In this document: positions 5,752-42,512 of the stretch, one piece after another | Numbering within the stretch: the stretch's first letter is position 1 | Layout of the letters: each line of letters opens with the position of its first letter | From: a virus | Taxonomy: Duplodnaviria; Caudoviricetes | Virus record (IMG/VR): IMGVR_UViG_3300033074_001542 | Coordinates: 6,068-70,067 of that record | Length of the DNA: 64,000 bases | Reading direction: 5' to 3' (one strand) | Notes under the pieces: model-generated | Database searches by the model: none | Seen by the model: the letters and a program-made list of their open reading frames with translations, nothing else | What the model was told of the DNA's origin: nothing | Position numbers and translations under genes: made by a program

Positions 5752-6215
5752 TTGATCCGGCACAGCGGCACATTCTCCTGCCAGGGATCGTTGACGTGCA
5801 CCGAATACTCGGGCCACGGAACCTTGGTGATAGGGAGCTTCCCCTTGTGCTTGCGCATCCGGAACTCCTTCCAGGTTTCGATGTGACTGGGAGCGGTGTA
5901 GGGGCGACGCTTCACGGCCGCGGGGTTCTCGATGACGCCAGAAGCCCTGGCCGCAATAACGGCGTAGGTGACCACCTTCTTGGTGAACCCGGTGTCAGCC
6001 ACGATCTCTTCGGGGGTGCGCCCCTGACGGAGGTAGTCGATGATGATCTTCCGGCGCTCCCTGGACGCCCTGCGACGGGCTGACCCCGCAGAGATATCCA
6101 CCATCGACGCGTAAACAGAAGACCGGCACGTCCGGCACTCGGTCTTTCCGTTCTTCCTGACGTAGGCGTTTTCGCCATCGACCAGATGCCCGTGCTTGCA
6201 GATCCGGGGCCTCAC
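5748..6215 (-). CDS. Zinc-finger plus HTH DNA-binding protein
   Basis: CKHGH..ENAY....G..ECRTC motif (usually seen appended to phage HNH proteins), followed by the HTH IIDYLRQGRTPEEIVADTGFTKKVV. Confidence 0.65.
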   Translation of the reverse strand: MRPRICKHGHLVDGENAYVRKNGKTECRTCRSSVYASMVDISAGSARRRASRERRKIIIDYLRQGRTPEEIVADTGFTKKVVTYAVIAARASGVIENPAAVKRRPYTAPSHIETWKEFRMRKHKGKLPITKVPWPEYSVHVNDPWQENVPLCRIK

Positions 6216-17636: not shown

Positions 17637-18094
17637 ACTGCCCTCCAGCCTCGGGGACCGCCGGTCTGGTGCGGTTCCTCGGACATCTCGATCACCTTCT
17701 GGGCGGCCCCCAGGATCTCCTTCTGGTAGGCCCCCTCCAACCGCCTGACGCGGCTGGCGCCCCTGTCATCCGGGTTGACGATGTCGTGATCCCCCCAGGA
17801 GCTCCAGGACGGATGCTCGTCCACCCAGAAGCCGTCCTGCTCATTCCACCCCACGGCATGGTTGCCGCAGGAATAGGCTTCCCATCCATCCGGGTAGATG
17901 GCCACAAAGCTGCCGTACTGGCAGCTTCCGATGAAGTGGGCGCTCGTGCTCTCGTATGGGTAAGGGATGCGGAAGTAGTCTTCATCCACATTCCCGAACG
18001 AGATGAGGTTGTAGGCGCAGTTCAGACTGCCCCATCCAAGGATGCTGTAAGCACTCTTGATGGACGCCTTCATCTTCTCCGAGAACGTGATCAT
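17633..18094 (-). CDS. Hypothetical protein (aromatic-rich)
   Basis: GAGGAG RBS; ATGA overlap at 18094. Confidence 0.65.
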   Translation of the reverse strand: MITFSEKMKASIKSAYSILGWGSLNCAYNLISFGNVDEDYFRIPYPYESTSAHFIGSCQYGSFVAIYPDGWEAYSCGNHAVGWNEQDGFWVDEHPSWSSWGDHDIVNPDDRGASRVRRLEGAYQKEILGAAQKVIEMSEEPHQTGGPRGWRAV

Positions 18095-18321
18095 CTGCTT
18101 CTCCTCATGGGACGAACGGTGTTGATCCAGCCCCCGGGGCCGAACGTTGCGGCCCACTTGCCGCCGGCAGTGAGTTCCACCACGGCGCCCTGCTCCTCGA
18201 GATCCTGGGCGGCATCCATAGCCATCTTCACGGCAAGCTCCGCGATGTTCCCCAGGGGAACGTTTTTGTGGCGGACCTTCCCGCCCTCCTGGTAGGTGAC
18301 CTTGGCAACGTAGTCAGACAT
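18091..18321 (-). CDS. Hypothetical protein
   Basis: GAGGAGG RBS before MSDYVAKV. Confidence 0.65.
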   Translation of the reverse strand: MSDYVAKVTYQEGGKVRHKNVPLGNIAELAVKMAMDAAQDLEEQGAVVELTAGGKWAATFGPGGWINTVRPMRRSR

Positions 18322-18387
18322 CTCTGACCTCCTCTTCGATGACCGGCTTCTCCGGCCCGGCCCATCTGCCGCCGCTGAGCCGCTTCC

Positions 18388-18612
18388 GGCGATTCCGGCC
18401 GGCTCCCCTCTAGGGGCGCCCTGGGCGACATCCACTCTTTTGTAGGTCCAAGTACAGGATCGACCGGGCTCAAGTACAGGATTTCCTGGGCGACATGAAG
18501 CGCGCCATCGTAGCGTCGGCGGCCCGAAATCGCCGTTTCGCCCCGGGCGGCGGCAGTTAGGCTGCGGCGGAAAGCCGTCAGAAGGCGCCACGGAATGCGG
18601 CGTCAAGGAGAG
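18388..18612. promoter_or_regulatory. Divergent early control region with direct repeats
   Basis: CAAGTACAGGAT x2 (18449, 18471) and CCTGGGCGACAT x2 (18420, 18485); a motif shared with 17418-17462. Confidence 0.55.
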
Positions 18613-18616
18613 CACC

Positions 18617-18928
18617 ATGCCGAAGACAGAATGGCAATACGCTGGAACGGTTTCCAGTCACACGCTCATCGAGAGGGACCTTGCCGAAGCGTTCACCGAC
18701 GCGGCGAAGGTCATCGCCCCCGAGAGGGCCGATGAGATCGACGCCCTCTACAACGAGTTCATTGCGGCGGAGGACGCGGAGGACTTCGAGACCGCCGGCT
18801 TCATCCTCAACGAGCAGATCTACGATCTCATGGATAGCCTTGCCCCCGAGGGCTACTACTTCGGTAGCCACCCGGGCGACGGCTCTGACTTCGGATACTG
18901 GGAAAACGAAGAGGAGGATGGCGAGTGA
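18617..18928 (+). CDS. Highly acidic early protein (DNA-mimic candidate)
   Basis: About 27 D/E versus 4 K/R in 103 aa by my count; APEGYYFGSHPGDGSDFGYW. Confidence 0.6.
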   Translation: MPKTEWQYAGTVSSHTLIERDLAEAFTDAAKVIAPERADEIDALYNEFIAAEDAEDFETAGFILNEQIYDLMDSLAPEGYYFGSHPGDGSDFGYWENEEEDGE

Positions 18929-19383
18929 TAACGCTCATCTACGGTCGCGATCCAGACGCCATGGATCGCTACGCTCAGTCCCTCGTCACCTACGGGAAGG
19001 GTGACATGCTCCTCGAATTCCCGGAAGAACACCTGTACCCTCTCGATCATCTCCCGATCGCTGAGCGCATTGCCGCCTACCACGAAAGCGGCTACGGTAA
19101 CGTGGTGTGCGCAACGCAGAGTGAGATCATTTGCCTGCGTATCCAGCGCAGGGTTCGCGAAGGATCCCTTGCCCACAAAGACGTTCGTGTCGTGTGGATA
19201 GAGAATGGAAAGCCCGTTCCTCTCCGCATGGACGAACACGGCCTCTTCATCGACGAGTGGCCATGGGGCTTCTTCGAAGATAACTACCGTGAGCACTTCA
19301 GCCATGAAAAGCTAGGCGCTGTTGACAAGTTCAATGATCAGGCCATCGACGACGCGTTCGTCTACCGCAGGGAGGACTACTGA
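18925..19383 (+). CDS. Truncated ABC-ATPase C-terminal half plus DUF3696-like domain
   Basis: LLEFPEEHLYP..VVCATQSEIICLRIQRRVREG..DEHGLFIDEWPWGFFE. Confidence 0.65.
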   Translation: MITLIYGRDPDAMDRYAQSLVTYGKGDMLLEFPEEHLYPLDHLPIAERIAAYHESGYGNVVCATQSEIICLRIQRRVREGSLAHKDVRVVWIENGKPVPLRMDEHGLFIDEWPWGFFEDNYREHFSHEKLGAVDKFNDQAIDDAFVYRREDY

Positions 19384-19934
19384 TGTACGCAAAGCTGAAG
19401 GCAGATGTCACCACGCCCGAGCCCTGGATCGGAGCGTGCGACAAGGTCAGCTACAGGGCTGGTGAGATCGTGCCAGTCATCTACGCGAGCAACCAGCCGC
19501 AGGACGGCCCGGACCGTATTCGGTACTGGATCGCCACGGTAGACGTAGAAGACCACCCGTACGGGATCGGTCTTCGTGACGGCGATTTCGAGATCGTCGT
19601 GTTCACCCCAAAGACGGCCTTCGACTTCGCCAAGCGCAAGAAAACATGGGACAACGATCTGTTCCCCGAGACGGAGCGGTGGGTGAACCGCTGTTACAGC
19701 GAACCCGACCGGCAGGAGGTAATCCTGCATCGCTGTAACGAGATCCTCGAGGCCTATGGCGTCGAGGGTGATCCAGACCTCGATCTCTCCTACGTCAACA
19801 TGGGTGATCCGTACATCAAAACCGTGTGCCTGCACGACTGCTGCTTCCACATCACATGTCAGGGCGACATGGTGGAGCAGATCGAGAAAGAGCTCATCGA
19901 GACGAACGCCCTGGTCAACGAGAGGGAAATCTGA
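19383..19934 (+). CDS. Hypothetical early protein
   Basis: Coupled operon gene (TGATG overlap). Confidence 0.7.
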   Translation: MYAKLKADVTTPEPWIGACDKVSYRAGEIVPVIYASNQPQDGPDRIRYWIATVDVEDHPYGIGLRDGDFEIVVFTPKTAFDFAKRKKTWDNDLFPETERWVNRCYSEPDRQEVILHRCNEILEAYGVEGDPDLDLSYVNMGDPYIKTVCLHDCCFHITCQGDMVEQIEKELIETNALVNEREI

Positions 19935-30418: not shown

Positions 30419-33400
30419 CTACTGGTACCTATCCATGGGGTCCGTCTTGTAGGCCACCACCGCTTGCCTGCGGAGCTCGTTGACGGCCCTGATGATCTCC
30501 TTGGCGTACTTGATCTTCTCGCTGTTCGACAGGGTGTTGTCCTTCAGGATCTCCATTCGGCGGCGCTGCAAGACGACGATGTCGTCGTTGATAGACTTCA
30601 TCACGTCGCTCCAGATCAGCGCCTTCTTGTTTGCCGGCCTGGCGAGGTATCTGTTGCCGGCATCTGAGTCGCCCTTGGCGACATAGGCATCGATCGTCTG
30701 CTTCGCCGTCCTTGTCTTGCCGTAGATGTCGCGGTACAGGATCGTCTCGTACCCAAAGGAGGAAGGCTCAGGAGGCATGAACCGTCCGAAGAGTTGCGAG
30801 TACTCTGATGGTGGCATCGGCTTTCCGACCTTCGTACTTACGTACTCGTCCGCGGCCGTCCGTGTTGACTTTGCCAGGGATCCCATCTTGTCGATGATGT
30901 ATGCGGTCTGGTCAGAGCTCGGTACGAACCCCTCCAGGTCTATCGCTCCGTTGGTAGCGTCCGACAAATTCTGCGCCGTCCTCCACATCGTGGAGGAGAT
31001 CGCCTTGCTGAGCTCCCCGGTATGTGGGCTCTGTCGATCCGGCGGCTCCAGGTCCTTCTGGCTCTCGAGCTCTATGGGCGTTCCGAAGAACAGGTCCTTC
31101 TTCGCTATGAGGCCGGCAGCCAGGTCCACGAGGGGAGGAGACGAGAAGGAGAGCAACTGCGACCCGATGCTTTTGCCGACCCGTGACGCGATCTCTGTTC
31201 CCGTTTCAAGGCCGGGCCGCTCCGGGTCCAGCTGGCGCTTCGCGCCATACAGGTTCCGCACCGCGTTGATCATGGGCGCCAATGATTTCGGGTTGCGTCG
31301 ATAGGCCTCATCCAGTGCTGCCTCGGCGCCGGTCATAAAGATCTGGCCGTAGACGAACCCCTTGGGGATTGCAACGATCTTTCCCCTGTACTCTTCGGGC
31401 ATCCCATCAACATCAGGGAGCCTGGTCCACATGTACAGGGACCCACCAGGCGTCTTGCGCTTGCGTTCGATCTCCTCGTCGTCCTTCGTCATCACCCAGT
31501 TGATGGCGGCCGGAACCGACAGCATCAAGACTCCGCGGGCCATCGTCGAGATCGGGTGGTTCTTGAGTGTCTGGTAGAACTTGTCCGCCGAGGCTATCCC
31601 GGCGTGCATGAACGGGCTGATGACCCCGAGAGATTTCAGTACCTCCGAGGATCCGTGGCGCGAAAAGTTGACGGTCACCTCGCGGGCCGCACGGCCCGCC
31701 TCGAGGTCGCTCAGGCCGCGGTCCTTCGCCAGGTTGAACTCGGCCCTTCTCGTCGCAGACTCGAACGGTTCCACGATTGCGTCCGCGAGCTGGAGCGGGT
31801 GGAAGATGCGGAGGACGCCCTTCATCAGTTTCGAGGTGCCATCCGTTTCGCGCATCATGTTCTCGTACTCTTGGCGGGCGATGCGCGTCGGCTCCCCGGT
31901 CAGGTTGGCAAACGAGCCGGCGGTCATCTTGTAGGCCAGACTCCTCTTTGCGTTGTCCTCTCCGCGGCGCACCCCCATCGAGGCTGCAACGGTCCTCAGG
32001 AGCTGGTAGTAGGGCGTGAACGGCATCTTCATGGCGCCGGTGACGCCGCCCAGCGCCTCCGATTGGATCGCCCGCGTCTGAACGTCGCGCCCTTGGTTCG
32101 CGATCGGGAAGAGCCAGTGGTGGGTTGTGAGCCACTTCAACGGGCGGGCCAGGGACAGGATCGACGCCCACCTCGCCACCTGTCCGCCGATATGCCGCGA
32201 CCCCACCGCCTCGTCCAGGAACTTGGCGATTCCTTCGTCGATCCTGAACTTGTTGTACTGGCCACCGTCCCAGTAGCCGAAGCTCAGGCTTCGCTTGTGG
32301 AAGTCCCGATCCTTCACGGCTTTCTTGTCTTCGCTTTCGGCCTTGATGATGTCCTTCAGGGTGGCATCCAGCTGTGCGATGGCATCGTCAGAGAGGCCAG
32401 TCTTGTCTTTGGACAGCTCGAATGCCGCCTTGAGCTTCACCCCGGTAGCCGAGAGGGGTGATCCTGATGATCCGCGGGAACGACGGACGGCGTTTCTCCA
32501 GTACACGGGGTTCGTGTCCACCGCCTTCCCGAGGGTGCGGTAGAGCCGGTTCCGTTCCGAGAGCGTGATCATCCGATGGGCGTACTCGATGGCCGCAAGC
32601 GTGTGATCCAGGGTCTCCCGCTCCGACCCCTGGAGTCTCTTTCCGATAGAGGAGACGCTCCTGGTGGATGCGCCGCCGGGCGAATAGATCTGGTCGAACA
32701 CGCGCTGCATGCTCGTGTAGTTCGGATACTTCAAGCGCAGGGTAGTCGCGAGCTCTTGCGGGATGGCCCCCGAGTTGACAACGTAATCAAGGACCGCCCC
32801 GTACCAAGCATCGAACTTCCTGGACAGTTTCAGGATCTTCTCGTTCGGCGGTTTCCCGCCGGTCCCCTCGATCTCATCTACGATCCGGGCCGCCTTCTTG
32901 AGATCCTTCCCCGTCTCGATGTACTCACCCGATGCGTTCTTCTCTTGCGAGACAGCGAGGGCATGCTTGCTCTCCCGGTACAGGGCGACCTTCAGGTAAT
33001 CAGGGCCGGCCTCCTTCATCAGCGCCTGGAACGGCTCAACATCATTCCTGAAGTCGAAGTCCCCGTCCCCTTTGATTCCACGCACAGGACCGTGCCACTT
33101 GCCGTTACTGTCTTGCTCACCGTAGAGGAAGCCAGACATGATCTTTCCAGAGAGACCGGCCATCTCGTCCGCCATCAAAGACGGGGACTCGAGGACGTGA
33201 AGGCGCTTCTGGCCATTGGCGTCCGTGTACTCGACCTTGTCCTCGAAGTGGCCCGAGGCCTCTTCCATAGATCGCACCGAGGCGGTGTAGTCGAGTAGCG
33301 CCGCCCTCATCGTCGCCGGCAGCTTGGCCGCGACGTGCTTCGGGATCCCTACGCCCTGTTGCAGTCGGTCGAGGGCTTCTTTGAGTTCTGGTCCGAGTGG

Positions 33401-36400
33401 GTCTCCGGCCTGCCTGCCTGAGTACTGATTCTTTTTCGTTCCCGGGAGGCCTTGATCTCCTCCAAGAATTTCTTCTCCAGATCCAGGTCCGACTCCCCGC
33501 CCATCTCCAGCTCCCTGTAGATTTGACCCCAGTTTTCCGGCATCTTCGACCCCTTTCTCCGGGATGAAATCAATCCCGGCGTCTGCGAGGGCATCATCAC
33601 CCTCCGGATCCTTTTTGTAAAGTTCTCGCACCCTGTCCATTTCGAGCATATGAAGTGCGAAAGACTCCGGGGTGTAGGCGTTCTTCTTCCGGATGATGTC
33701 GTCCAGGCCTTTCTTGATCTGGTCGAGCGTGAGCTGGGTCCCGCCTCTCGAGTCGCCGATCTGGTATTCGACATGGCCGACAAGCTTCTCCGGGTTTTCG
33801 TTCCACTTCCGGAAGAGCTTCATCGTCATCTGGTCTGGCGTGAAGAGATCGACGTTACGTTTCCCCTCCTCCGAGAAGACCTCATTGGCCGGCGTCCGGC
33901 GAACACCGTGCTCGGCCAGGGCGGCGTGGACACGGCGCTGGATCGAACCGGGCTCTGTCTTTGCCAGCATGGAGGCGACGACCTCGTCCTTGCTTTTGAC
34001 TGGGACAGGAGCTTCGGGGTCGAACTTGGTGTTCCAGGCGCCGAGAAGTTTCCCGTGATCCATGTAATAGATGAGTGACGGTTTCCCGTCCCCGCCGGGC
34101 ACGATCAGGAGTCCGGTGTTCGTCGACTTCGGGTCGGTCTGCTCCCAGAAGTTTCCGACGCTGTCAAGCTTCTCTCTGGGGATGACATCCCCGGCCGCTA
34201 TCCCGAGCTTGGCCGCTTCCTGCTTCGCTCGCTTGATGACGCCTTCGTATCCGATCCCTGCCGGCTGAAACATCAGGGCGCGGTCTTCGTACCCCATGTC
34301 CCGTACCAGGTGCCCGAGGGCCGTCCTGGCGGTATACCTCTGGCGCAAACGGACGATGCTGTCGTACCTGTCCTTCGCCATCTTGGTTGCCACGTCACGG
34401 TCAACATCCGCGATGAGGTTGAACAGCCTCTCGGCTTCCCCTCTCGGGTTCCATTTGTCAGTCTCTGCCTGCGGACGAGGTGTGATCTTCGGCAGGTTGC
34501 CGGGCCCCTCGTCAAACTTCTTGGGTAGAACGTACGGCTCCGCCGGCGTCTTCAGGGTGACGACGGATGGTTTTCCGGTCGTCACGATTCCGCTCTCCGT
34601 GATCGAAACGAGCCCCTTCCTGGTCAGCTCATTGAGTCCTTCACGGAGGATGGGAAGCTCCTTCGGTCCCTCGTAGATCGCATCCCGGAAAGCCTTCGGC
34701 AGCTCGGCCACACCGTTGTCGGTGAGAACGAGCGAGTGGACCTTTCTGCCCTTGTACTCGAACCCGGCGCCATCCCAGTCCTGCCCAGGCGGAACGTAGG
34801 TCGGAGAGAGGAGACCGCGCTCGATGAGGTCGACCACGTTCCCCTTCGGGAGCGAGGCCGCAACCTTCGACGGGATCGTCGCGTCCGTGATGTCGAACCC
34901 CTCGTCGGCAACCCTGCCGGCGCCACCATGAGCTTTGATCACTTCGTTTGCGATCCTCTGTAGGGTCACGTCGGCGGTCCTGGTGATCGGGATCTCGTCA
35001 CTCCCAGGGATACGGACGCTCACAACATCACGCACAAGGAGATCTCGCTTCTGGGCCCGGCGCTCGGCTACCGCACGGGCGATACGGGATGCGGCCCTGT
35101 GACCAGCCTCGGTCAGCCTCGCGTCTGCCAGACTTTTTACCCATACCGGAATCGATGTCTTTGGTGCGTGTTCTTTTACGTCGGAGACTTCTTTCCCGTA
35201 GGCCCTCACGTCAGCGACGGTATCGAGCTTGCGCCAGACCGTCTTCCCCTCGGCGCCCACCTCCACCATGATGCGACCCTTGTCCTTACCCAGGGCCAAA
35301 AGTCCCTCCTCACGCATCCGTCTGATCACCCAGCCGATCCTGTCTGCTTTCAGGCCTGGAATTTCGCTCAGCCATTCAGTCACAGTTTCGAGTGGGACCC
35401 GGTCGGGCATCGAAGGCTTGTCCAGCTCTGCCGCGGCCTTCGGGAACATCCGGACGATCTTGGTTGCGATATCGGAATCCACCTCACCTTCGATGCCCCG
35501 TTTCAACGAAGCTCTTGATCGTTCCGCGTCGGATTTTCCGAGGGACGCCCCGAGCTTGGATACCGCGGAGGAGTACATCCTCCGGATGGCGTGCTCGCTG
35601 CTCCCGAGGTCCCTCACTAGTTCCGCCATCGGCAGGGCGGCGTCGGGGGATTCCAGTAGCTTTTCGCCTACCTTCCTGGCGATGTATCGCTCCTCTTTGG
35701 TGAGCGCCTCGAACGCTTTGTCCTGCGTCTCCTCGAGACTGCGCCGGATGATCTCCTCATCAGCTGGCTTGACCCTGGCGTCGGCGACGAGTTCCCCGTA
35801 CGAGGTATCGTCCTCGCCTTCCCTGCCACGCCGCGCCGTGGCGTCGAGAGAGATCTCGCTGGACTGAAGCTCCTGACGCTTCAGGTGATTCTTGATGACC
35901 GCTTCGGTTATTCCCTCGTTACCTTTTTCTCGGAGAGACTCAACGACCTCCTGCGTCGTTGGTTCGCGATCGAGATCATTACGGAGAGCGTCGTACTCCT
36001 TGTCGATGATCTGCCCGATCCTGACGGCATTCTTTCCGGCGAGTCCACCGCCACGAGACAGGTAGATCGCATCGGTCATGGCTTGCTGGGCGGCAACGTT
36101 GACCGTCCGACCCAGGGATTCGATACCCTTCACGCCGGCCTCACGCTGCTTGATGTACTTGTCGACGACTCTCAGGGCCGCATCGTTACCAGCATCAACC
36201 AGGTCCTCGAACCTGACGCCGGTGCCGCGGCGCATCCTGGTTGCCGTGCCAGCGACGGTGAACAGGGACCGCCCGAGCAGGTCCTCGTAGGTAGCCTTGG
36301 CTTCCTCCGCTGGGCTCAGGTCTTTCGGGACACCGCGCTCCGTCAGCTCTCCTTCGAATGCAGATCTCAGGGTGTTGTAGTAGTCCTTGATCCTGACCCG

Positions 36401-39400
36401 TTCCTCCGCGTCCTCATAAGAGGATTTTGGCTTGCTCTGCCTGGTCTTCTTTTCTGGCAACGGGACGATCTGCTCTGGCGAGAATGGTTCGAAGGGGTGC
36501 TCGTAATCGACTTCACCTTTTTCGCCGAGCGAAACGTTCCCCTTCCTGATTTCACTCTCTCTCTGTAGCGGAGCAATCCGCTGCGCCCTGATACCAGAGA
36601 TGATCTTTGCCCACTTCTGCGGGATCGTCCGGATAGGGACAGGACTCTCCCCACCAAGCGGAGCCTCCCCGAAACGCATACCGCCCAGTTGATTGGCGTA
36701 TCTTGTGCCGGAGAGTCTCTCGAGTTCGTCTGAACTGGGTGACCTGGTCGCTGCGCCAAAACGTGTTGAGCGCCCGCTCGTGAGGTATGTCTGTACCCAC
36801 TTCCTGGCTGTTTCTTCCGGGATCTTCTCCACGTTCGATACAACCCGGACGAGGTCGTCGATAGAGATCTCTGGCTGGATCTCCGCCGGTTTCGAGCGTC
36901 CGGTCTCGTCGACTGTTACTTTTCGCGCGCCCGTCTCGGATATCCCCTCTTCGCGGTACTTCAGGATCTGGGCTGCGTAGTGGTCTACGACCCTGATGAT
37001 TTCGCTCTCCCGCTCTATCTCATCGATATTCCTGGCCTCACGCCCGGAGAACCTGATTCCGGTGCTCGCCTTTCCGAACTTGCCGGATTCGGCCAGCTTA
37101 TTCAGCTTGTCGCGTCTCTCGTCGAGCACTCTGAGGTTGCCGCCGTCGGCTGGCTTACTGACGCTCTCGTCAGCCACGACCACTTTTCTGGCCTTCGCCA
37201 GAAGATCCCTGAGCCTCTCAACATGCCTTGGGTTGATCTTGTCCGGCGAGCCCATACCAGACACATCGAGTATCTTTTCGTAGAGCTCGTCGAATTCCCC
37301 GATGGCTTCCTGGAGCTCTTTCTCGGTTGGCCGGGTGGACTCGGTCTTGGCCTCGACCGGTTCCTGCGGAGCCTCTGTACCCCGTTTCATCTCGGAGATA
37401 GAGAGGTCCGATACGGCTTCCATAGGCGCTTCTTTTGCGGGCTCTTTCGGAGCTGTCTTAGGAGGTTCCTGAATCGGACGTTCGACGCGCGGAACTTCCC
37501 ATCTGTCCGCCATGACGTGGATCTTCTCGATGCGCTGCCTGGCGATCTCGGCAGCAAGCTTCGAGCCCTCGTCAGCGGGGTTGGCAGAGGCCTCTTTTTC
37601 AGCGACGTCAAGAAGCCTGTAGTGGGACCGGTACGCCTCGTTGACCATCTCTCTCTTGACGGCCTTGGCGGGTCCCTTTCCACTCTTGTTCCATGTTTCG
37701 CTCAGCGTCTTCGCCGCCTTGTCGGCGACGGCCTTGGCGGTACCCACGTCGAGGCTTTCCGGCTCCGGAATTGCCGGCGCCTTCGCTTCTACTGTATTGG
37801 GTGCCGGCTCGGCGGGCGGCGCAGCGGTCTTCGCTTCTTTTGGCGGCTTTTGCTTGGGCGGCTTCGGAACCTCGGCCGGCTTCGGCGGTTCTGATTTCGG
37901 GGGTTCGACCGGGGGCTGGGCTTCAACCGGCGGGGCCTGGGCCGGCGGCGGAGCCGGAGCCGATGCGGCTGCTTTTCTCTTCGCCTCAAAAGCCTGGGCC
38001 TGCTTCAGGGCGCTGGCCACTTGTTCCGGGGCCAGGTTGAGCTCGTTGATGAAGCTCTCCTCCATGGCCTTGTAGTCGAGCTCGCCATCCCTGCCCCGGA
38101 AGCTGTCCAGGTCGCTGGCCTCGATCTCGACATCCGCGTCAACCTCGGCCGGCTCAGCCGCAGGTTTTGCGGCCGGCTTAGGGGCTGACTTGGGGGCGGG
38201 TGCCGTTTCTTGCGGCTTGGGCGCCGGCGGTGCCGTCGGCTTCTTGGGATAGAGAAGGTCGGCGAGTGGATCCGCTTTCAAGCGATCGATCTTCTGCTGG
38301 ATGCGGGCGACGGCGACATCCTTTTCGTTCTTCCCCATCGCCGGGTCAGCCTTCGCTTTCGTCAGCTCTTCCTGAAGCTTGGCGACCGCATCCGTCGTGC
38401 TTTTCTTCGACGCCGTGTGCATCAGCTTCGCGGCATCCAGGGCCCGCTGTTCGGCAGCCATCTTTTCATCGAGCGCCTTGGCGAGGTTCGGTTTCTCGGC
38501 TGCCTCGAGAGGCGCTTGATCGAATGCTTCCTTCGCTTTGGCTACCTCTTCTCGCGCCGCCTGGACATTCCGGAGGGCAATCTGCGCGACGCCGGTCCGC
38601 TCGGCTTCGACGTCAGCCTTCTGGGCTACGTCGTACCGGCCGAGTCTGATGTCCCTCATCGTGGCGTCGGCTTTCTGCTTGTCAGTCAGGCTGCTTTCGC
38701 CGGTGAGCACGCGCCGCACCGTTGCCTGCTGCTGGCGACGCCGGGCCTGGTCGTACTTCTCCGGTGTCTCCATCTGGCGCAGGGCGATGTACATCTGGGA
38801 CGCCATCGGATCGCCCTTGAAGGCTGACGTATCACCGGCCTCGTAGGCCGCGAACATCTTGTCGAACTCTGCCGGGTTCTTGTCGTAGAGGCGCTTGTAA
38901 TAACCGTAGTTCGGGTGAAGGCCTTCGCCGCGCTCGATGTTTTCCTGGATACGTTCGGTCGCTCCGAGAGCCTCGTTGAGCTGACGAACCGCTTCCGCAT
39001 GGATGCTCTTCTCGGGGCCGTCCGGCAGTCCTGCCATCTTCGACTCAAGGTCCGCGCGAACAGCCTGGATCGTGTCGGCGTCCGCGAGGGCGCCAGACTT
39101 CAGACCGAGTCCCTTTTCGAGATCACCGAGCTTTCCCTTGAGCCGGCCGGACTCGACTAGCCAGTGCAGTTTTTCGTGCTGAAAGATGCCCGGTGTCGTC
39201 TCGCCACGCAGTGCGTAGATGGTGTTCTCGGCATCGTTGAACCAGGCGATCGGCTCTTTCGCTCCGCCTCCACCGCGGATGGCGTCACCGCCCTCGGTAG
39301 CCTGCTTGTATTCCGGGCTGTCCTTGTCCATGAACTTCACGGAAAGAGACTGAGGCGTATCGCTCGACGTCCACTTACCGTCTTCGCCGCGCTTCCAGTT

Positions 39401-41008
39401 GAGTGCCGAGGTCTCAAGCAGAGCCCTCTGGCCGTCGATGGTTCTCGTGTCAAACTTCCCGCCCGGAACATCAACATCGAACGGGGTTCGGTTATGGAAG
39501 GCCGAGCGAGCCATCCCGCCCATGAACGCCGCAGTTGCGCCGGTCCCGATACCCTCACGGACCGCCTTCTCCCAGTCTCCTGTCTGGGGCGCAGACGCCA
39601 GGGCCTCCACCGCTTCCGGCCCTTGATTCCAGAGCTCGCGCGCCATTCCCTGCGCGAAGTAGGGCGTCACCACGGCCTTATGGAGACCGGCCTCTGTCGC
39701 GCCAGTGAGGACCGAACGCGCACCTTGCGCTAACTCCCGACCGAGGCCCGTGAGTCCGTCCTTGTAGGGGGCCGCCGACTTAAATGCGTTCTTTGCCGCC
39801 TCCAGTGACGGCTGGTATGTAGTCGACTCGCGCCAGAGATCCTTCGCAACGGCAGGAATTTCCCTGGGAATCAAGCTCCGAACTCCGGTCGCCTGCTGAC
39901 TTTCCAGGATGGCTTTTCCGGTTTCCTGAAACACCTTTGCCTCGCGCGCCCCGGTGAATGCCGGGATCAGTTCGCGGGCGGCCTGGATGGCGCCACCGAC
40001 CTTGCCAAGCGAAGTGGCTTCTGGTGGAGCCGCCTTGATCATCCGGCCCAGGGCGTTCAGGCCCTTCGGGGCTACGTTCGCGATCTTGTTGATAGCGGCC
40101 ATCTCGCCGCCAAGGAGCATCTCGCCCAGGCCCCCGGCCACCTCACCCCCGACCTCGGCCAACCGGCCGGCCTTGACGAGTCCGGGTGTTCTGTCGATCG
40201 CCTGCTGCGCCTCGAGCTGTGTTTCGCCGAACCGCGGGTCCGTTTCGCCGACCTGGCGTTTCACGTCGTCGACATCGTCGTTGGGCCCGAGACGGAGTTT
40301 CCGCCTGAGCTCATTCTGCCTCTTGACACTCTCGGCACGCGCCCAGGCAGCGTCCGCCGCATGTGATTCCGCTCCCAGCTGGAGGGCGAGCCCTGGAATT
40401 CGCCCCATCTGTCCGAGCTGCGGAGTCACCGCTTGAAGCGGGGCCATCACGGTAGCCCATGCTTTCGATCCAGCGCCCGCGTTTGGATCGGTATAGGTGT
40501 CGACGAGCGGTTCCACCGCGCGTCCTGAAAACGTTTTCTCGAGAGCTCTTTCTGGAACAGGGAGGCCGCGAACCCTGCCGAGAGATCTGGATGCCGGTTG
40601 CATGTCTTCCGGGGCCGGGATAGCGTTTGCGTCTTCCGGCTGGAACTCTGTTTGGTTGCGCCTAGATGCCTCCATCTTGGATGCGAACGGATCCGCATCC
40701 GACACGAACCGACGCCGGCGCTTGTCGGCTAGCCATGCGATGTCTTCACCCTGGCGCGGCCCGACAAACTCGGGATCTAGGCCACGCTCACGCAGGGTCT
40801 GGACAGCACCCACGGGAGCCCTGTGCGAGAGCGGAGCCATCAGGCCCTCGCCGCTTTTCGACCGCCTGTAGAACTCCTTCACGGAGTCCGAGGTCTTGGC
40901 CATCTCGCGGGGAACGAAGAACTTCTCTGGTCCGCCCTCTTCCGTCATGTCGACGTAGATACCGGGGAGTCTGTCGTCCAGGCCACCTATCCAGTCGTAA
41001 TCAGCCAT
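30419..41008 (-). CDS. Giant (~3,529 aa) polyvalent DNA-ejection/internal virion protein: zincin-like HExxH motif, Pro/Ala linker, embedded sigma-70-like domain, C-terminal LPD38-like domain
   Basis: Start refined to MADYDW at 41008 (AAGGGG RBS). GIFQHEKLH at ~39170; sigma-like segment at ~35540-36325; ESATRRAEF..AAREVTVNFSRHG..PFMHAGI..IPKGF (LPD38-like, ~31050-31780). It is the last gene of the virion operon. Confidence 0.8.
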   Translation of the reverse strand: MADYDWIGGLDDRLPGIYVDMTEEGGPEKFFVPREMAKTSDSVKEFYRRSKSGEGLMAPLSHRAPVGAVQTLRERGLDPEFVGPRQGEDIAWLADKRRRRFVSDADPFASKMEASRRNQTEFQPEDANAIPAPEDMQPASRSLGRVRGLPVPERALEKTFSGRAVEPLVDTYTDPNAGAGSKAWATVMAPLQAVTPQLGQMGRIPGLALQLGAESHAADAAWARAESVKRQNELRRKLRLGPNDDVDDVKRQVGETDPRFGETQLEAQQAIDRTPGLVKAGRLAEVGGEVAGGLGEMLLGGEMAAINKIANVAPKGLNALGRMIKAAPPEATSLGKVGGAIQAARELIPAFTGAREAKVFQETGKAILESQQATGVRSLIPREIPAVAKDLWRESTTYQPSLEAAKNAFKSAAPYKDGLTGLGRELAQGARSVLTGATEAGLHKAVVTPYFAQGMARELWNQGPEAVEALASAPQTGDWEKAVREGIGTGATAAFMGGMARSAFHNRTPFDVDVPGGKFDTRTIDGQRALLETSALNWKRGEDGKWTSSDTPQSLSVKFMDKDSPEYKQATEGGDAIRGGGGAKEPIAWFNDAENTIYALRGETTPGIFQHEKLHWLVESGRLKGKLGDLEKGLGLKSGALADADTIQAVRADLESKMAGLPDGPEKSIHAEAVRQLNEALGATERIQENIERGEGLHPNYGYYKRLYDKNPAEFDKMFAAYEAGDTSAFKGDPMASQMYIALRQMETPEKYDQARRRQQQATVRRVLTGESSLTDKQKADATMRDIRLGRYDVAQKADVEAERTGVAQIALRNVQAAREEVAKAKEAFDQAPLEAAEKPNLAKALDEKMAAEQRALDAAKLMHTASKKSTTDAVAKLQEELTKAKADPAMGKNEKDVAVARIQQKIDRLKADPLADLLYPKKPTAPPAPKPQETAPAPKSAPKPAAKPAAEPAEVDADVEIEASDLDSFRGRDGELDYKAMEESFINELNLAPEQVASALKQAQAFEAKRKAAASAPAPPPAQAPPVEAQPPVEPPKSEPPKPAEVPKPPKQKPPKEAKTAAPPAEPAPNTVEAKAPAIPEPESLDVGTAKAVADKAAKTLSETWNKSGKGPAKAVKREMVNEAYRSHYRLLDVAEKEASANPADEGSKLAAEIARQRIEKIHVMADRWEVPRVERPIQEPPKTAPKEPAKEAPMEAVSDLSISEMKRGTEAPQEPVEAKTESTRPTEKELQEAIGEFDELYEKILDVSGMGSPDKINPRHVERLRDLLAKARKVVVADESVSKPADGGNLRVLDERRDKLNKLAESGKFGKASTGIRFSGREARNIDEIERESEIIRVVDHYAAQILKYREEGISETGARKVTVDETGRSKPAEIQPEISIDDLVRVVSNVEKIPEETARKWVQTYLTSGRSTRFGAATRSPSSDELERLSGTRYANQLGGMRFGEAPLGGESPVPIRTIPQKWAKIISGIRAQRIAPLQRESEIRKGNVSLGEKGEVDYEHPFEPFSPEQIVPLPEKKTRQSKPKSSYEDAEERVRIKDYYNTLRSAFEGELTERGVPKDLSPAEEAKATYEDLLGRSLFTVAGTATRMRRGTGVRFEDLVDAGNDAALRVVDKYIKQREAGVKGIESLGRTVNVAAQQAMTDAIYLSRGGGLAGKNAVRIGQIIDKEYDALRNDLDREPTTQEVVESLREKGNEGITEAVIKNHLKRQELQSSEISLDATARRGREGEDDTSYGELVADARVKPADEEIIRRSLEETQDKAFEALTKEERYIARKVGEKLLESPDAALPMAELVRDLGSSEHAIRRMYSSAVSKLGASLGKSDAERSRASLKRGIEGEVDSDIATKIVRMFPKAAAELDKPSMPDRVPLETVTEWLSEIPGLKADRIGWVIRRMREEGLLALGKDKGRIMVEVGAEGKTVWRKLDTVADVRAYGKEVSDVKEHAPKTSIPVWVKSLADARLTEAGHRAASRIARAVAERRAQKRDLLVRDVVSVRIPGSDEIPITRTADVTLQRIANEVIKAHGGAGRVADEGFDITDATIPSKVAASLPKGNVVDLIERGLLSPTYVPPGQDWDGAGFEYKGRKVHSLVLTDNGVAELPKAFRDAIYEGPKELPILREGLNELTRKGLVSITESGIVTTGKPSVVTLKTPAEPYVLPKKFDEGPGNLPKITPRPQAETDKWNPRGEAERLFNLIADVDRDVATKMAKDRYDSIVRLRQRYTARTALGHLVRDMGYEDRALMFQPAGIGYEGVIKRAKQEAAKLGIAAGDVIPREKLDSVGNFWEQTDPKSTNTGLLIVPGGDGKPSLIYYMDHGKLLGAWNTKFDPEAPVPVKSKDEVVASMLAKTEPGSIQRRVHAALAEHGVRRTPANEVFSEEGKRNVDLFTPDQMTMKLFRKWNENPEKLVGHVEYQIGDSRGGTQLTLDQIKKGLDDIIRKKNAYTPESFALHMLEMDRVRELYKKDPEGDDALADAGIDFIPEKGVEDAGKLGSNLQGAGDGRGVGPGSGEEILGGDQGLPGTKKNQYSGRQAGDPLGPELKEALDRLQQGVGIPKHVAAKLPATMRAALLDYTASVRSMEEASGHFEDKVEYTDANGQKRLHVLESPSLMADEMAGLSGKIMSGFLYGEQDSNGKWHGPVRGIKGDGDFDFRNDVEPFQALMKEAGPDYLKVALYRESKHALAVSQEKNASGEYIETGKDLKKAARIVDEIEGTGGKPPNEKILKLSRKFDAWYGAVLDYVVNSGAIPQELATTLRLKYPNYTSMQRVFDQIYSPGGASTRSVSSIGKRLQGSERETLDHTLAAIEYAHRMITLSERNRLYRTLGKAVDTNPVYWRNAVRRSRGSSGSPLSATGVKLKAAFELSKDKTGLSDDAIAQLDATLKDIIKAESEDKKAVKDRDFHKRSLSFGYWDGGQYNKFRIDEGIAKFLDEAVGSRHIGGQVARWASILSLARPLKWLTTHHWLFPIANQGRDVQTRAIQSEALGGVTGAMKMPFTPYYQLLRTVAASMGVRRGEDNAKRSLAYKMTAGSFANLTGEPTRIARQEYENMMRETDGTSKLMKGVLRIFHPLQLADAIVEPFESATRRAEFNLAKDRGLSDLEAGRAAREVTVNFSRHGSSEVLKSLGVISPFMHAGIASADKFYQTLKNHPISTMARGVLMLSVPAAINWVMTKDDEEIERKRKTPGGSLYMWTRLPDVDGMPEEYRGKIVAIPKGFVYGQIFMTGAEAALDEAYRRNPKSLAPMINAVRNLYGAKRQLDPERPGLETGTEIASRVGKSIGSQLLSFSSPPLVDLAAGLIAKKDLFFGTPIELESQKDLEPPDRQSPHTGELSKAISSTMWRTAQNLSDATNGAIDLEGFVPSSDQTAYIIDKMGSLAKSTRTAADEYVSTKVGKPMPPSEYSQLFGRFMPPEPSSFGYETILYRDIYGKTRTAKQTIDAYVAKGDSDAGNRYLARPANKKALIWSDVMKSINDDIVVLQRRRMEILKDNTLSNSEKIKYAKEIIRAVNELRRQAVVAYKTDPMDRYQ

Positions 41009-41018
41009 CCGGGTCCCC

Positions 41019-42512
41019 TTATTTTCGTTTGCCGTTGAGGCCGTAAACCGGGATACCGCTTCCACCGCCACCGCCGGGGGCAGCTGCCGATGGATGAGAT
41101 GCCGTCGGACCAACATCTACCTGCGGCAGGGTCAGATATTCCTCGCTCAAGCGGCCGCTCCGGAACAACGGTAGAGCCATGTTCCTGATCAACTCGATGG
41201 CGCTGTCTTTCGTCATCTTTCCATCCTCGGTGAGGATCGTGATGGCGTCGGCATACGTCTTCGGGTTACGCGCCTTCAGCTTCTCGGCGGCGAACCTGTC
41301 TATGAGACTGCCACCCGTCGTGCGTGGCACGACTCCGCTCACGAGCGAACCAACAACGCGGTTCTCGATCATGCCGGCCCGTCTAACGTTCCGATCTTCC
41401 AGCGCCGACTCCGCCACTTGCGCCTCGAGCGGCACACCTTCAATGGGAACCGTGCGACCTGACCTCGTGAGCCCGTACCAGACACCGTCTTTTGATGTGT
41501 AAGACTTGATGTCGTCATCGCCCTTATTGATTCCGGCTTTTCTGGCGTTGATGTCCATCTGCTCTTTCCAGACATCGAATTCGATCATCCCGTCGGGTGC
41601 CGAATCACCCGGTCTCACTTTGGTAGTCTGGTACGTTTTTGGGTTGATGTAAGTGATGGCGTTCCGCGGGTTGTTCCTGTCGGCCTCTTGCTGCAACGCA
41701 AACTGCTTGTTCAGCCTTGCGTCTGTAGCCTCTTCCTGCGCCTTGAACCTGCGATTCAGAAGCTCTTCCTGGTAGTCAGCCTTCTCGCGGTCGGTCATCT
41801 CTGGCGAGAAGACGCTCCAGTACGCAGCGTCGTACTTGTTCTGCGCCGCTCGCATCTTTCGTTCTTTCAGATCGTTCCTCATGTTGAGGACCGCCCCAAA
41901 CTGCGGGAACATCGCTGACAGAATCATGGCCCAGGTGCTACCGGACGAGTCTGTCGCTTCCTGCCATTCCTTCTCGGCCTTCTCAAGGTCGGACTGGGAG
42001 CCGCGCACGAGGTCGCCACCCTGTAGCTTCGGGGCTGCTGTCTTCGTGCTGACGTCGATACCCTTCAACAGGTTTTCGTTGAACGATGTCGACCCCATGG
42101 CGTCCGGAGACTTGGTGGATTCCGGGCCGGCGAACTCGGCTGCACGCTTGAACGGCGTGGCGAACGCGCCGGCGTCATTTATCGCGAACGACTTTTCTTC
42201 TGGCTCAAACGGACTGAGCCCAGGGGGTTCAGGGGAGCTCATCCGAGCCGACATGATCTCCGGGGAGATTCCCTGGCGAGCTTGCTGCGCGGCCGCGTTG
42301 AACGGAGTCGCGAAGGCGTTGTTGACGTCGTGTTCCTGCGTCACCTCGGTGCCTGCGGTCGGATCGAACGCGGCGAGCTGATCAGCGGAAAGCCTCGGGG
42401 CTACAGCATTAGGCATACTGGTTCGCGACCTGAGCGCCGAGTACCCAGACGACCGCTGGGGCGCCGCGTTAAAGCTCACCTGGCTGCTGAATGGTTTTGC
42501 TCCGTATGCCAT
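41019..42512 (-). CDS. Internal virion / DNA-ejection protein
   Basis: Position before the giant protein, a hydrophobic helix (WAMILSAMFPQFGAVL) and a coiled coil. Confidence 0.6.
   Translation of the reverse strand: MAYGAKPFSSQVSFNAAPQRSSGYSALRSRTSMPNAVAPRLSADQLAAFDPTAGTEVTQEHDVNNAFATPFNAAAQQARQGISPEIMSARMSSPEPPGLSPFEPEEKSFAINDAGAFATPFKRAAEFAGPESTKSPDAMGSTSFNENLLKGIDVSTKTAAPKLQGGDLVRGSQSDLEKAEKEWQEATDSSGSTWAMILSAMFPQFGAVLNMRNDLKERKMRAAQNKYDAAYWSVFSPEMTDREKADYQEELLNRRFKAQEEATDARLNKQFALQQEADRNNPRNAITYINPKTYQTTKVRPGDSAPDGMIEFDVWKEQMDINARKAGINKGDDDIKSYTSKDGVWYGLTRSGRTVPIEGVPLEAQVAESALEDRNVRRAGMIENRVVGSLVSGVVPRTTGGSLIDRFAAEKLKARNPKTYADAITILTEDGKMTKDSAIELIRNMALPLFRSGRLSEEYLTLPQVDVGPTASHPSAAAPGGGGGSGIPVYGLNGKRK

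Follow-up and report, generated by a model that had tools for sequence, protein, structure and literature searches.

The window, the whole 64,000-nucleotide stretch of viral DNA analysed here (positions 6,068 to 70,067 of record IMGVR_UViG_3300033074_001542), carries a gene for a 152-amino acid (aa) protein that we call mini-NsnB. In our reading, this protein is a minimised and catalytically dead derivative of an NsnB-type (Menshen/HEC-03/PDC-M55-like) ABC ATPase, and it would act as an anti-defence decoy that captures the effector of a bacterial defence system through the C-terminal tail that it has retained; we assign this reading a probability of about 0.45, and it is the binding and the inhibition that we infer. 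The gene and the elements that it encodes are as follows.

18925–19383 (+), mini-NsnB gene (P0001), 152 aa, a dead and minimised ABC-ATPase core with a DUF3696-type tail (assigned from the open reading frame (ORF), homology, an AlphaFold 2 (AF2) model and fold matches)
18928–18945 (+), ITLIYG, the pre-Walker-A (P-loop) beta-strand (aa 2–7; strand at 2–7 in the AF2 model)
18943–18966 (+), GRDPDAMD, the destroyed Walker A site (aa 7–14), with no GK[ST]
19006–19041 (+), MLLEFPEEHLYP, a degenerate Walker B/D-loop (aa 28–39; consensus LLIEQPExHLHP, with Q32 replaced by F and H38 by Y)
19111–19125 (+), ATQSE, a degenerate H-loop (aa 63–67; ETHSE in the family, with E63 and H65 lost)
19123–19164 (+), EIICLRIQRRVREG, the conserved basic helix after the H-loop (aa 67–80; helix at 67–79 in the model)
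19231–19299 (+), the DUF3696-type tail and helix, D..G.F.D.WPxGFF....E.F (aa 103–125), a predicted effector-docking element whose role is taken from AlphaFold 3 models (PMC12065111)
19300–19380 (+), an acidic, lineage-specific C-terminal extension that is predicted to be disordered (aa 126–152; predicted local distance difference test (pLDDT) 40–64) and does not occur in the other minis described below

A phmmer search against 1.84 billion representative sequences returned 1,764 matches to mini-NsnB at E ≤ 1e-3, including 149 at E ≤ 1e-10. Residues from about 17 to 126 align to the last ~110 residues of proteins that are mostly 450–950 aa long, and the full-length relatives carry AAA_15, AAA_21 and usually DUF3696, with NsnB, PDC-M55A and HEC-03B as their best PADLOC models. 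Mini-NsnB itself matches PDC-M55A (4.5e-11), NsnB (1.4e-7) and HEC-03B (3.7e-7), in each case at the C-terminal end only (profile positions 308–405 of 421, 237–334 of 345 and 342–440 of 458, respectively) and never over the full length. From these alignments, mini-NsnB is clearly homologous to the NsnB-type (AAA_15/AAA_21 plus DUF3696) defence ATPases. A phmmer search of PDB sequences and an NCBIfam scan with the protein gave no match, and a word-indexed search for longer homologs scored none, which is a limit of the index since the exhaustive search found them.

The tail had been described as DUF3696-like in an earlier annotation made without database searches (hereafter, the sequence-only reading), and this description stands in part. 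A Pfam scan of mini-NsnB found no family at E ≤ 1, including PF13175, PF13304 (AAA_21) and PF12476 (DUF3696), and P0006, a mini built like it, reached only E 0.0078 against PF12476, which is below the cut-off. Residues 103–125 nevertheless align column by column with the PF12476-matching tails of P0003, P0004, P0005, P0007, P0008 and P0016, and it is because the tails of these homologous proteins match PF12476 that mini-NsnB is linked to DUF3696.

The sequence-only reading had also presented the protein as a C-terminal half that starts just before Walker B, which must be revised, as residues 2–7 correspond to the strand that precedes Walker A in the family. In 183 full-length relatives, a consensus P[IL]TL[IVL][YF]G, most commonly PITLIYG, ends at the Walker A glycine, and the pattern is essentially absent elsewhere in these proteins. 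Mini-NsnB opens with V-ITLIYG and continues with RDPDAMD where the relatives read xNSxGKS. In a BLASTP comparison with P0010 (208 aa), the whole protein aligns (E 6e-17), and the ITLIYG strand lies opposite PITLIYGLNGAGKT. Only ~20 residues, forming one helix, separate the P-loop strand from Walker B; no signature motif (DVGxGxSQxLP in the family) appears in the alignments of mini-NsnB, and the Q-loop and the insert/helical domain are also gone.

The predicted structure led to the same picture. The AF2 model of mini-NsnB has an overall pLDDT of 83.3, with values above 90 over residues 1–115, and an all-against-all structural search (VIA) with this model retrieved almost solely ABC-type ATPases at Z 7–9.6, namely MutS2 (Z 9.6), GajA, UvrA, ABC transporters, Rad50 and SMC. 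With GajA (8u7i_A), the match has a Z of 8.9 and a root-mean-square deviation of 2.2 Å over 92 aa, and model residues 1 to 111 are placed on chain residues 23 to 421, across the deleted insert. Residue 1 of the model aligns with about residue 23 of GajA and about residue 28 of Rad50, and the alignment then skips the inserts. Foldseek against PDB gave weak rows only (E ≥ 0.06). The model thus points to an ABC/RecA-like alpha-beta core fold: the Z scores are middling for VIA, yet they come from one superfamily and agree with the sequence homology. Because the pre-Walker-A strand of the family is kept and the fold alignment begins at about residue 23–28 of the complete ATPases, mini-NsnB is an internal-deletion mini-core that lacks the N-terminal hairpin and ~350–400 residues between helix 1 and Walker B, rather than a C-terminal half.

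To see what has been retained, six minis were compared with 113 full-length relatives at the columns that are ≥70% conserved in the latter. Retention of these consensus residues by the minis is 83% in the tail (aa 103–125) and 72% in the helix (aa 67–80), against 35% in the Walker B/D-loop and 27% in the H-loop. W112, P113, G115 and F116 in the tail are 100% conserved. Conversely, Q32, E63 and H65 are conserved in 97–100% of the full-length relatives (E63 and H65 in all 113) and in none of the six minis; mini-NsnB, for example, has EFPE at the Walker B/catalytic pair where the family has EQPE. The motifs that had been quoted from the sequence are all present in the ORF (LLEFPEEHLYP at aa 29–39, TQSE at aa 64–67, RIQRRVREG at aa 72–80 and DEHGLFIDEWPWGFFE at aa 103–118), and Walker A is absent as stated, with no GxxxxGK[ST] anywhere in the protein. 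The proposed descent from a defence-type ABC ATPase and the loss of catalysis are likewise borne out, since mini-NsnB has neither Walker A nor the signature motif and carries other residues at positions Q32, E63 and H65. Given the established mechanism of ABC ATPases, it is very unlikely that mini-NsnB would bind or hydrolyse ATP or form the canonical ATP-sandwich dimer.

These losses bear on how a dead homolog of this kind could interfere with a host system. The sequence-only reading favoured a dominant-negative inhibitor of the ATPase, in which mini-NsnB would co-assemble with protomers of a host NsnB-type ATPase through the core, the D-loop or the tail and would cap or distort the dimer or tetramer. 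Such poisoning has a precedent in viral Cas homologs that assemble into defective interference complexes, and mini-NsnB is homologous to the ATPase core, keeps its fold and has a D-loop region that is still fairly family-like (PEEHLYP against PExHLHP). However, in the canonical ABC dimer, ATP is enclosed by a P-loop and a signature motif contributed by different protomers, and mini-NsnB has neither. It has also lost the insert regions, which could plausibly form the second (tetramer) interface. In addition, the 35% retention of the Walker B/D-loop consensus across the minis includes P0057, P0151 and P0156, in which this region is unrecognisable. We therefore regard poisoning of the ATPase assembly as unlikely. 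A role as decoy or inhibitor remains the most economical reading of the protein, and dominant-negative inhibition is one of two mechanisms by which it could act, effector capture being at least as likely.

The nature of such an effector was approached through the full-length relatives. We collected the 80 best bacterial loci (L029–L108), which belong to many phyla and whose ATPases share ≤47% identity with the phage protein over ~96–100 aa. At 75 of the 80 loci, a homologous gene (one BLAST cluster) lies directly 3' of the ATPase gene, often with a stop/start overlap, and 71 of these 75 partners are 300–380 aa long (for example, the modules at L038:6321-7397 and L048:6354-7358). The ATPase tails at the Arthrobacter locus L038 and at the proteobacterial loci L048 and L054 are among those nearest to the tail of mini-NsnB, and tails co-vary with effectors. 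Ten partner proteins tested gave no Pfam match above threshold (one had a weak, sub-threshold match to MIT_C) and no PADLOC match. A profile of the partner family matches the PLD-fold MIT_C domain of MITD1 (E 9.4e-9) with an HDR..RF core, and DRY and HDR..RF are the conserved motifs. In the AF2 model (pLDDT 88.5), the N-domain is PIN-like (Z 4–6 to SMG5, Nmd4 and VapC) and the C-domain has the PLD fold (Z ~10 to PLD, SauUSI, MITD1, NucT and Zucchini). As modelled, this is the architecture of NsnC, 'inPIN' plus 'PB-PLD1', as described for Menshen (PMC12065111), and the two-gene module of ATPase and PIN-PLD protein looks like a Menshen-type NsnB–NsnC pair. The immediate neighbours scanned at the 80 loci included no DUF262 (NsnA) gene.

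The surroundings of the ATPase genes include HsdS (~8 loci), HsdR, HsdM-type and other methyltransferases, RAMPs, integrases and transposases. The loci sit in defence-island or mobile contexts, with a linkage to restriction-modification (R-M) genes in a minority only. Long forms of 714–943 aa account for about 21 of the 80 ATPases, and P0016, a long form of 866 aa from the representative search, has an N-terminal N6_Mtase domain.

Published work on these systems provides a possible function for the tail. In AlphaFold 3 models of 25 Menshen systems, two DUF3696 tails of the NsnB dimer surround the PIN-like domain of NsnC, and one class of NsnC effector is MIT_C-like with an HDR motif (PMC12065111). 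HEC-03, which consists of an ATPase and a PIN protein, defends experimentally, and both genes are required (bioRxiv 10.1101/2024.01.29.577857); HEC-03 is also reported to be toxic when induced. That a homolog of a defence component can be turned against the host is known from viral Cas homologs, which act as anti-CRISPRs by forming defective complexes or by sequestering CRISPR RNA (bioRxiv 10.1101/2023.06.24.545427).

We thus propose the following course for effector capture by mini-NsnB. Two deletions took away the N-terminal hairpin and all the residues that had separated the first core helix from Walker B, including the Q-loop, the insert and the signature motif. They left a small and stable alpha/beta core in which two surfaces only are well conserved, namely the basic helix that follows the H-loop and the WPxGFF/DUF3696 tail. 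Encoded in an accessory operon and probably expressed early, this core protein would serve the phage as a decoy of the docking module. Through its tail, mini-NsnB would bind the NsnC-type nuclease effector of the host and would hold it sequestered or inactive once the host ATPase is triggered, so that defence fails. The complete 70-kb phage genome lacks a full-length ATPase, and none of its genes is homologous to the PIN-PLD effector profile. Neither an NsnA- nor an NsnC-type gene was seen in it, although no separate search was aimed at NsnA/DUF262. We prefer effector capture because the tail is kept, the P-loop and the motifs of the canonical dimer are lost, and the phage has neither a full-length ATPase nor an effector of its own. 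No 'anti-Menshen' protein and no truncated or phage-encoded NsnB was found in the literature searched.

Several points weigh against this proposal. The absence of any Pfam match, DUF3696 included, is one of them, and the helix and the tail could be conserved for folding alone. The effector-docking role of DUF3696 is itself a published structure prediction, and the models have two tails of an ATPase dimer clamping the effector, so that equivalence for a monomeric or homodimeric mini-NsnB is presumed. The minis form a rare family, with ~6–8 distinct members in very large databases. Finally, none of the 50,697 records of cultured phages searched by megablast and tblastn matched the window, P0001, P0151, P0006 or the portal protein. 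No cultured relative of the phage was found in this way, and the possession of the cognate system by its host is presumed.

The other minis that are built like mini-NsnB, with dead motifs and a conserved tail, are P0006 (149 aa), P0057 (124 aa), P0151 (127 aa), P0156 (133 aa) and an ORF on a 132-kb IMG/VR contig (L012). Their N-terminal strand is of the I[TH]x[IVL] type, or VVWV in the L012 ORF. Two further proteins are less reduced. P0010 (L006:105-731) has an intact P-loop, with Walker A GLNGAGKT and THSE, and is without the insert, and P0099 (L007:6001-6600) has a degenerate P-loop, a signature-like stretch, EFPE and THSE. Judged from these motifs, the two may be steps of a reduction series or minis that still bind nucleotide.

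The family did not grow on wider searching. A first IMG/VR scan yielded one dead mini (that of L012) in addition to full-length ATPases; a second, with the P0057-type subgroup, returned the L012 contig again and no new mini; and a metagenome scan recovered P0006 again only, the other short matches being contig-edge fragments or true C-terminal pieces. The latter, located off contig edges and 158–195 aa in length (L133:3851-4351, L151:617-1201, L153:2161-2745, L160:577-1050 and L172:405-917), retain a signature-type motif, Walker B (EQPE, ENPE or similar) and the H-loop (THSE/THSD), unlike the dead minis. They may represent split or frameshifted ATPase genes.

The phylogeny with full-length relatives that the sequence-only reading had called for was run as a quick maximum-likelihood tree. 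All eight minis fall on one side of a branch with an SH-like approximate likelihood ratio test value of 86, although their branches are 4–7 times the median length and long-branch attraction is possible in such a tree. Mini-NsnB thus groups with the other phage-borne minis. The suggested capture from the host is not supported as a recent event: identity to the best bacterial relatives, which come from many phyla, does not exceed 47% over ~96 aa, and mini-NsnB groups with phage minis on long branches.

Degenerate catalytic motifs and long branches would also be expected of a functionless, decaying remnant of a phage-borne full-length defence ATPase, and full-length versions do exist on viral contigs. 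Decay is, however, difficult to reconcile with an intact ORF that follows a strong ribosome-binding site and is coupled translationally to both of its neighbours, with deletions that leave a compact and confidently modelled fold starting exactly at a conserved strand, with the same architecture in at least six otherwise unrelated phage-like contexts, and with a tail and a helix that are conserved while the catalytic residues are lost. Because the gene is intact, the architecture recurrent and the retention of tail and helix selective, we favour selection over decay and consider a remnant highly improbable.

Each mini lies in a long array of small ORFans that all run in one direction, on phage-like contigs that reach 183 kb in length; in the array of P0156, an IS605 OrfB/Cas12f-like TnpB gene is inserted (L028:12066-13265, minus strand). 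Apart from two related phages (L004/L025), the mini is the only gene common to these loci and the operon of the window. A hypothesis of a conserved partner was rejected, as no gene besides the mini is common to the loci, and from this absence of common neighbours it follows that the mini moves alone, as an accessory gene that is not tied to any one partner. A phage-borne effector was also looked for: neither the phage of the window nor the 132-kb L012 phage has a homolog of the effector profile, the four other mini contigs being outside this search. On another phage-like contig (L021:1457-4459, also L020 and L022), a 578-aa DUF3696 ATPase, P0007, is followed by a 410-aa unannotated gene near the terminase gene. 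As this pair shows, complete systems of ATPase and partner occur in phages besides the minis.

The occurrence of such pairs on phage genomes, including that of P0007, is compatible with a role of mini-NsnB on the phage side and apart from counter-defence, either as an adaptor or regulator of a PIN-like nuclease of phage or host (in the takeover of host RNA or DNA or in superinfection exclusion) or as a small P-loop-like scaffold. The PIN-like domains of NsnC-type proteins are very diverse (PMC12065111), which leaves room for a phage partner from another family, and Foldseek against BFVD found uncharacterised phage proteins of 99–146 aa with a similar predicted fold (E 2.5e-7 to ~4e-2). These look-alikes come from phages such as phiRSL1, AR9, PspYZU05 (two copies), pf16, fHe-Yen9-04, GAP32 and CBB, and many of them from jumbo phages. 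In sequence, none resembles the minis at a level that tblastn can pick up (E ≤ 1, no match in the 50,697 phage records), so that the look-alikes may share the alpha/beta arrangement only or may be very diverged relatives. The mini loci have no conserved neighbour, and the complete phage genome has no effector homolog and no full-length ATPase. A phage-side role is accordingly doubtful, and we retain capture of a host effector as the preferred reading.

The genomic setting of mini-NsnB was read from the sequence of the window, which represents most of the 70,067-bp IMG/VR record (rated complete by CheckV). The proteins of the phage include a primase-helicase, an SNF2 helicase, an SU10-type portal and a 3,564-aa polyvalent protein. 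As the sequence-only reading stated, the mini-NsnB gene is the second gene of its operon. The operon runs rightward from 18617, after a divergent intergenic region, and the mini-NsnB gene stands alone within an array of phage genes of the accessory or early type. The further features are listed below.

18617–18928 (+), gene 1, 103 aa, very acidic (27 aspartate/glutamate against 4 lysine/arginine residues; isoelectric point 4.1), coupled to the mini-NsnB gene through GTGA
18911–18918 (+), Shine–Dalgarno-like GAGGAGGA, 6 nucleotides before the GTG start, read from the sequence
30419–41116 (−), 3,564-aa ORF, with LPD38 (large polyvalent protein-associated domain) near the C-terminus as the sole Pfam match; probably a giant virion or ejection protein

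The GTG start of the mini-NsnB gene overlaps the stop of gene 1 as GTGA, and its TGA stop overlaps the ATG of gene 3 as TGATG. Because of these overlaps and the strong ribosome-binding site, the gene is considered to be well formed and translationally coupled. It is probably expressed early, as judged from gene position only. A sigma-70 promoter scan of 17900–19500 found none, which is uninformative if the phage uses its own polymerase or promoters. The genes that flank mini-NsnB have no Pfam match and one weak PHROG match only, that of gene 1 to phrog_29605 (unknown function). From its composition, gene 1 could be a DNA-mimic-type anti-restriction protein resembling Ocr, and we count the presence of an Ocr-like acidic protein in the same operon as support for the counter-defence reading.

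By analogy, the first two genes might even form a two-layer cassette, in which the DNA mimic encoded by gene 1 would block type I restriction, an R-M-linked guard composed of ATPase and PIN-PLD protein would fire in response, and mini-NsnB would disarm the guard nuclease. A fraction of the modules of ATPase and PIN-PLD protein lies within or next to type I R-M operons or is fused to an HsdM-type methyltransferase. Translational coupling of genes 1 and 2 would then make the antidote together with the trigger. PARIS, which is triggered by Ocr, and PrrC, which is triggered by Stp, are parallels for such a guard. We consider this extension a long shot, clearly less probable than either of the mechanisms of interference discussed above.

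ABC-ATPase plus nuclease systems (Gabija, Septu, PARIS, Menshen, HEC-01 to HEC-03 and others) are among the commonest bacterial defences. To our knowledge, the control of the effector by the ATPase in these systems is largely deduced from structure predictions. If effector capture by mini-NsnB is correct, it would be the first inhibitor for this branch of ABC-ATPase plus nuclease systems, and it would extend the anti-defence route of co-opting a defence subunit from CRISPR to ABC-ATPase systems. With its ~125 folded residues, it would also be a naturally occurring minimal reagent with which to map the ATPase–effector interface and to test the predicted role of DUF3696. A simple rule for the search for further inhibitors would follow as well, namely to look through the accessory regions of phages for orphan pieces of defence proteins whose motifs are dead. 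The two-gene module of DUF3696 ATPase and PIN-PLD protein is in itself widespread, and the ten effectors tested match no PADLOC model.

Among known systems, the NsnB (MenB, the Menshen transducer), PDC-M55A and HEC-03 ATPases resemble mini-NsnB from Walker B to the C-terminus, in the basic helix, the WPxGFF/DUF3696 tail, the ITLIYG strand and the ABC core fold. They differ in size (roughly 345–950 aa against 152 aa), as mini-NsnB is without the hairpin, Walker A, the Q-loop, the insert and the signature motif and has substitutions at Q32, E63 and H65. Moreover, mini-NsnB is phage-encoded and alone, unlike the operonic NsnB, as the phage genome has no homolog of an NsnC-type effector. The modules of DUF3696 ATPase and PIN/PLD protein contain the nearest full-length relatives, and their tail is the element that mini-NsnB keeps; these are complete ATPases in bacterial chromosomes, often beside R-M, CRISPR or mobile genes, whereas the phage holds the tail module only.

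In its proposed mode of action, mini-NsnB is closest to the viral Cas anti-CRISPR homologs (Katz et al., bioRxiv 10.1101/2023.06.24.545427), in which a non-functional orphan homolog of a defence subunit, carried by a mobile element in a locus of the anti-defence type, jams or starves the host complex. Mini-NsnB resembles them in that it is homologous to a defence component, catalytically inactive and encoded as an orphan in an accessory region of a phage. The viral Cas homologs target CRISPR Cascade/Cas3, as shown experimentally, whereas mini-NsnB would target an ABC-ATPase/nuclease system in a role that is predicted. Antitoxin mimics, such as Gp145 of ICP1 against DarT (PMC13728456), would follow the same logic if the ATPase restrains the nuclease as an antitoxin restrains its toxin; they are not truncated ABC-ATPase homologs, and the likeness that we infer is a functional analogy. 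Gad1 (PDB 8u7i), the phage inhibitor of Gabija GajA, also counters an OLD-type ABC-ATPase defence complex, and GajA is among the best structural matches of mini-NsnB. Gad1, however, is an unrelated protein of ~300 aa that wraps the Gabija complex and is not a homolog of a Gabija subunit.

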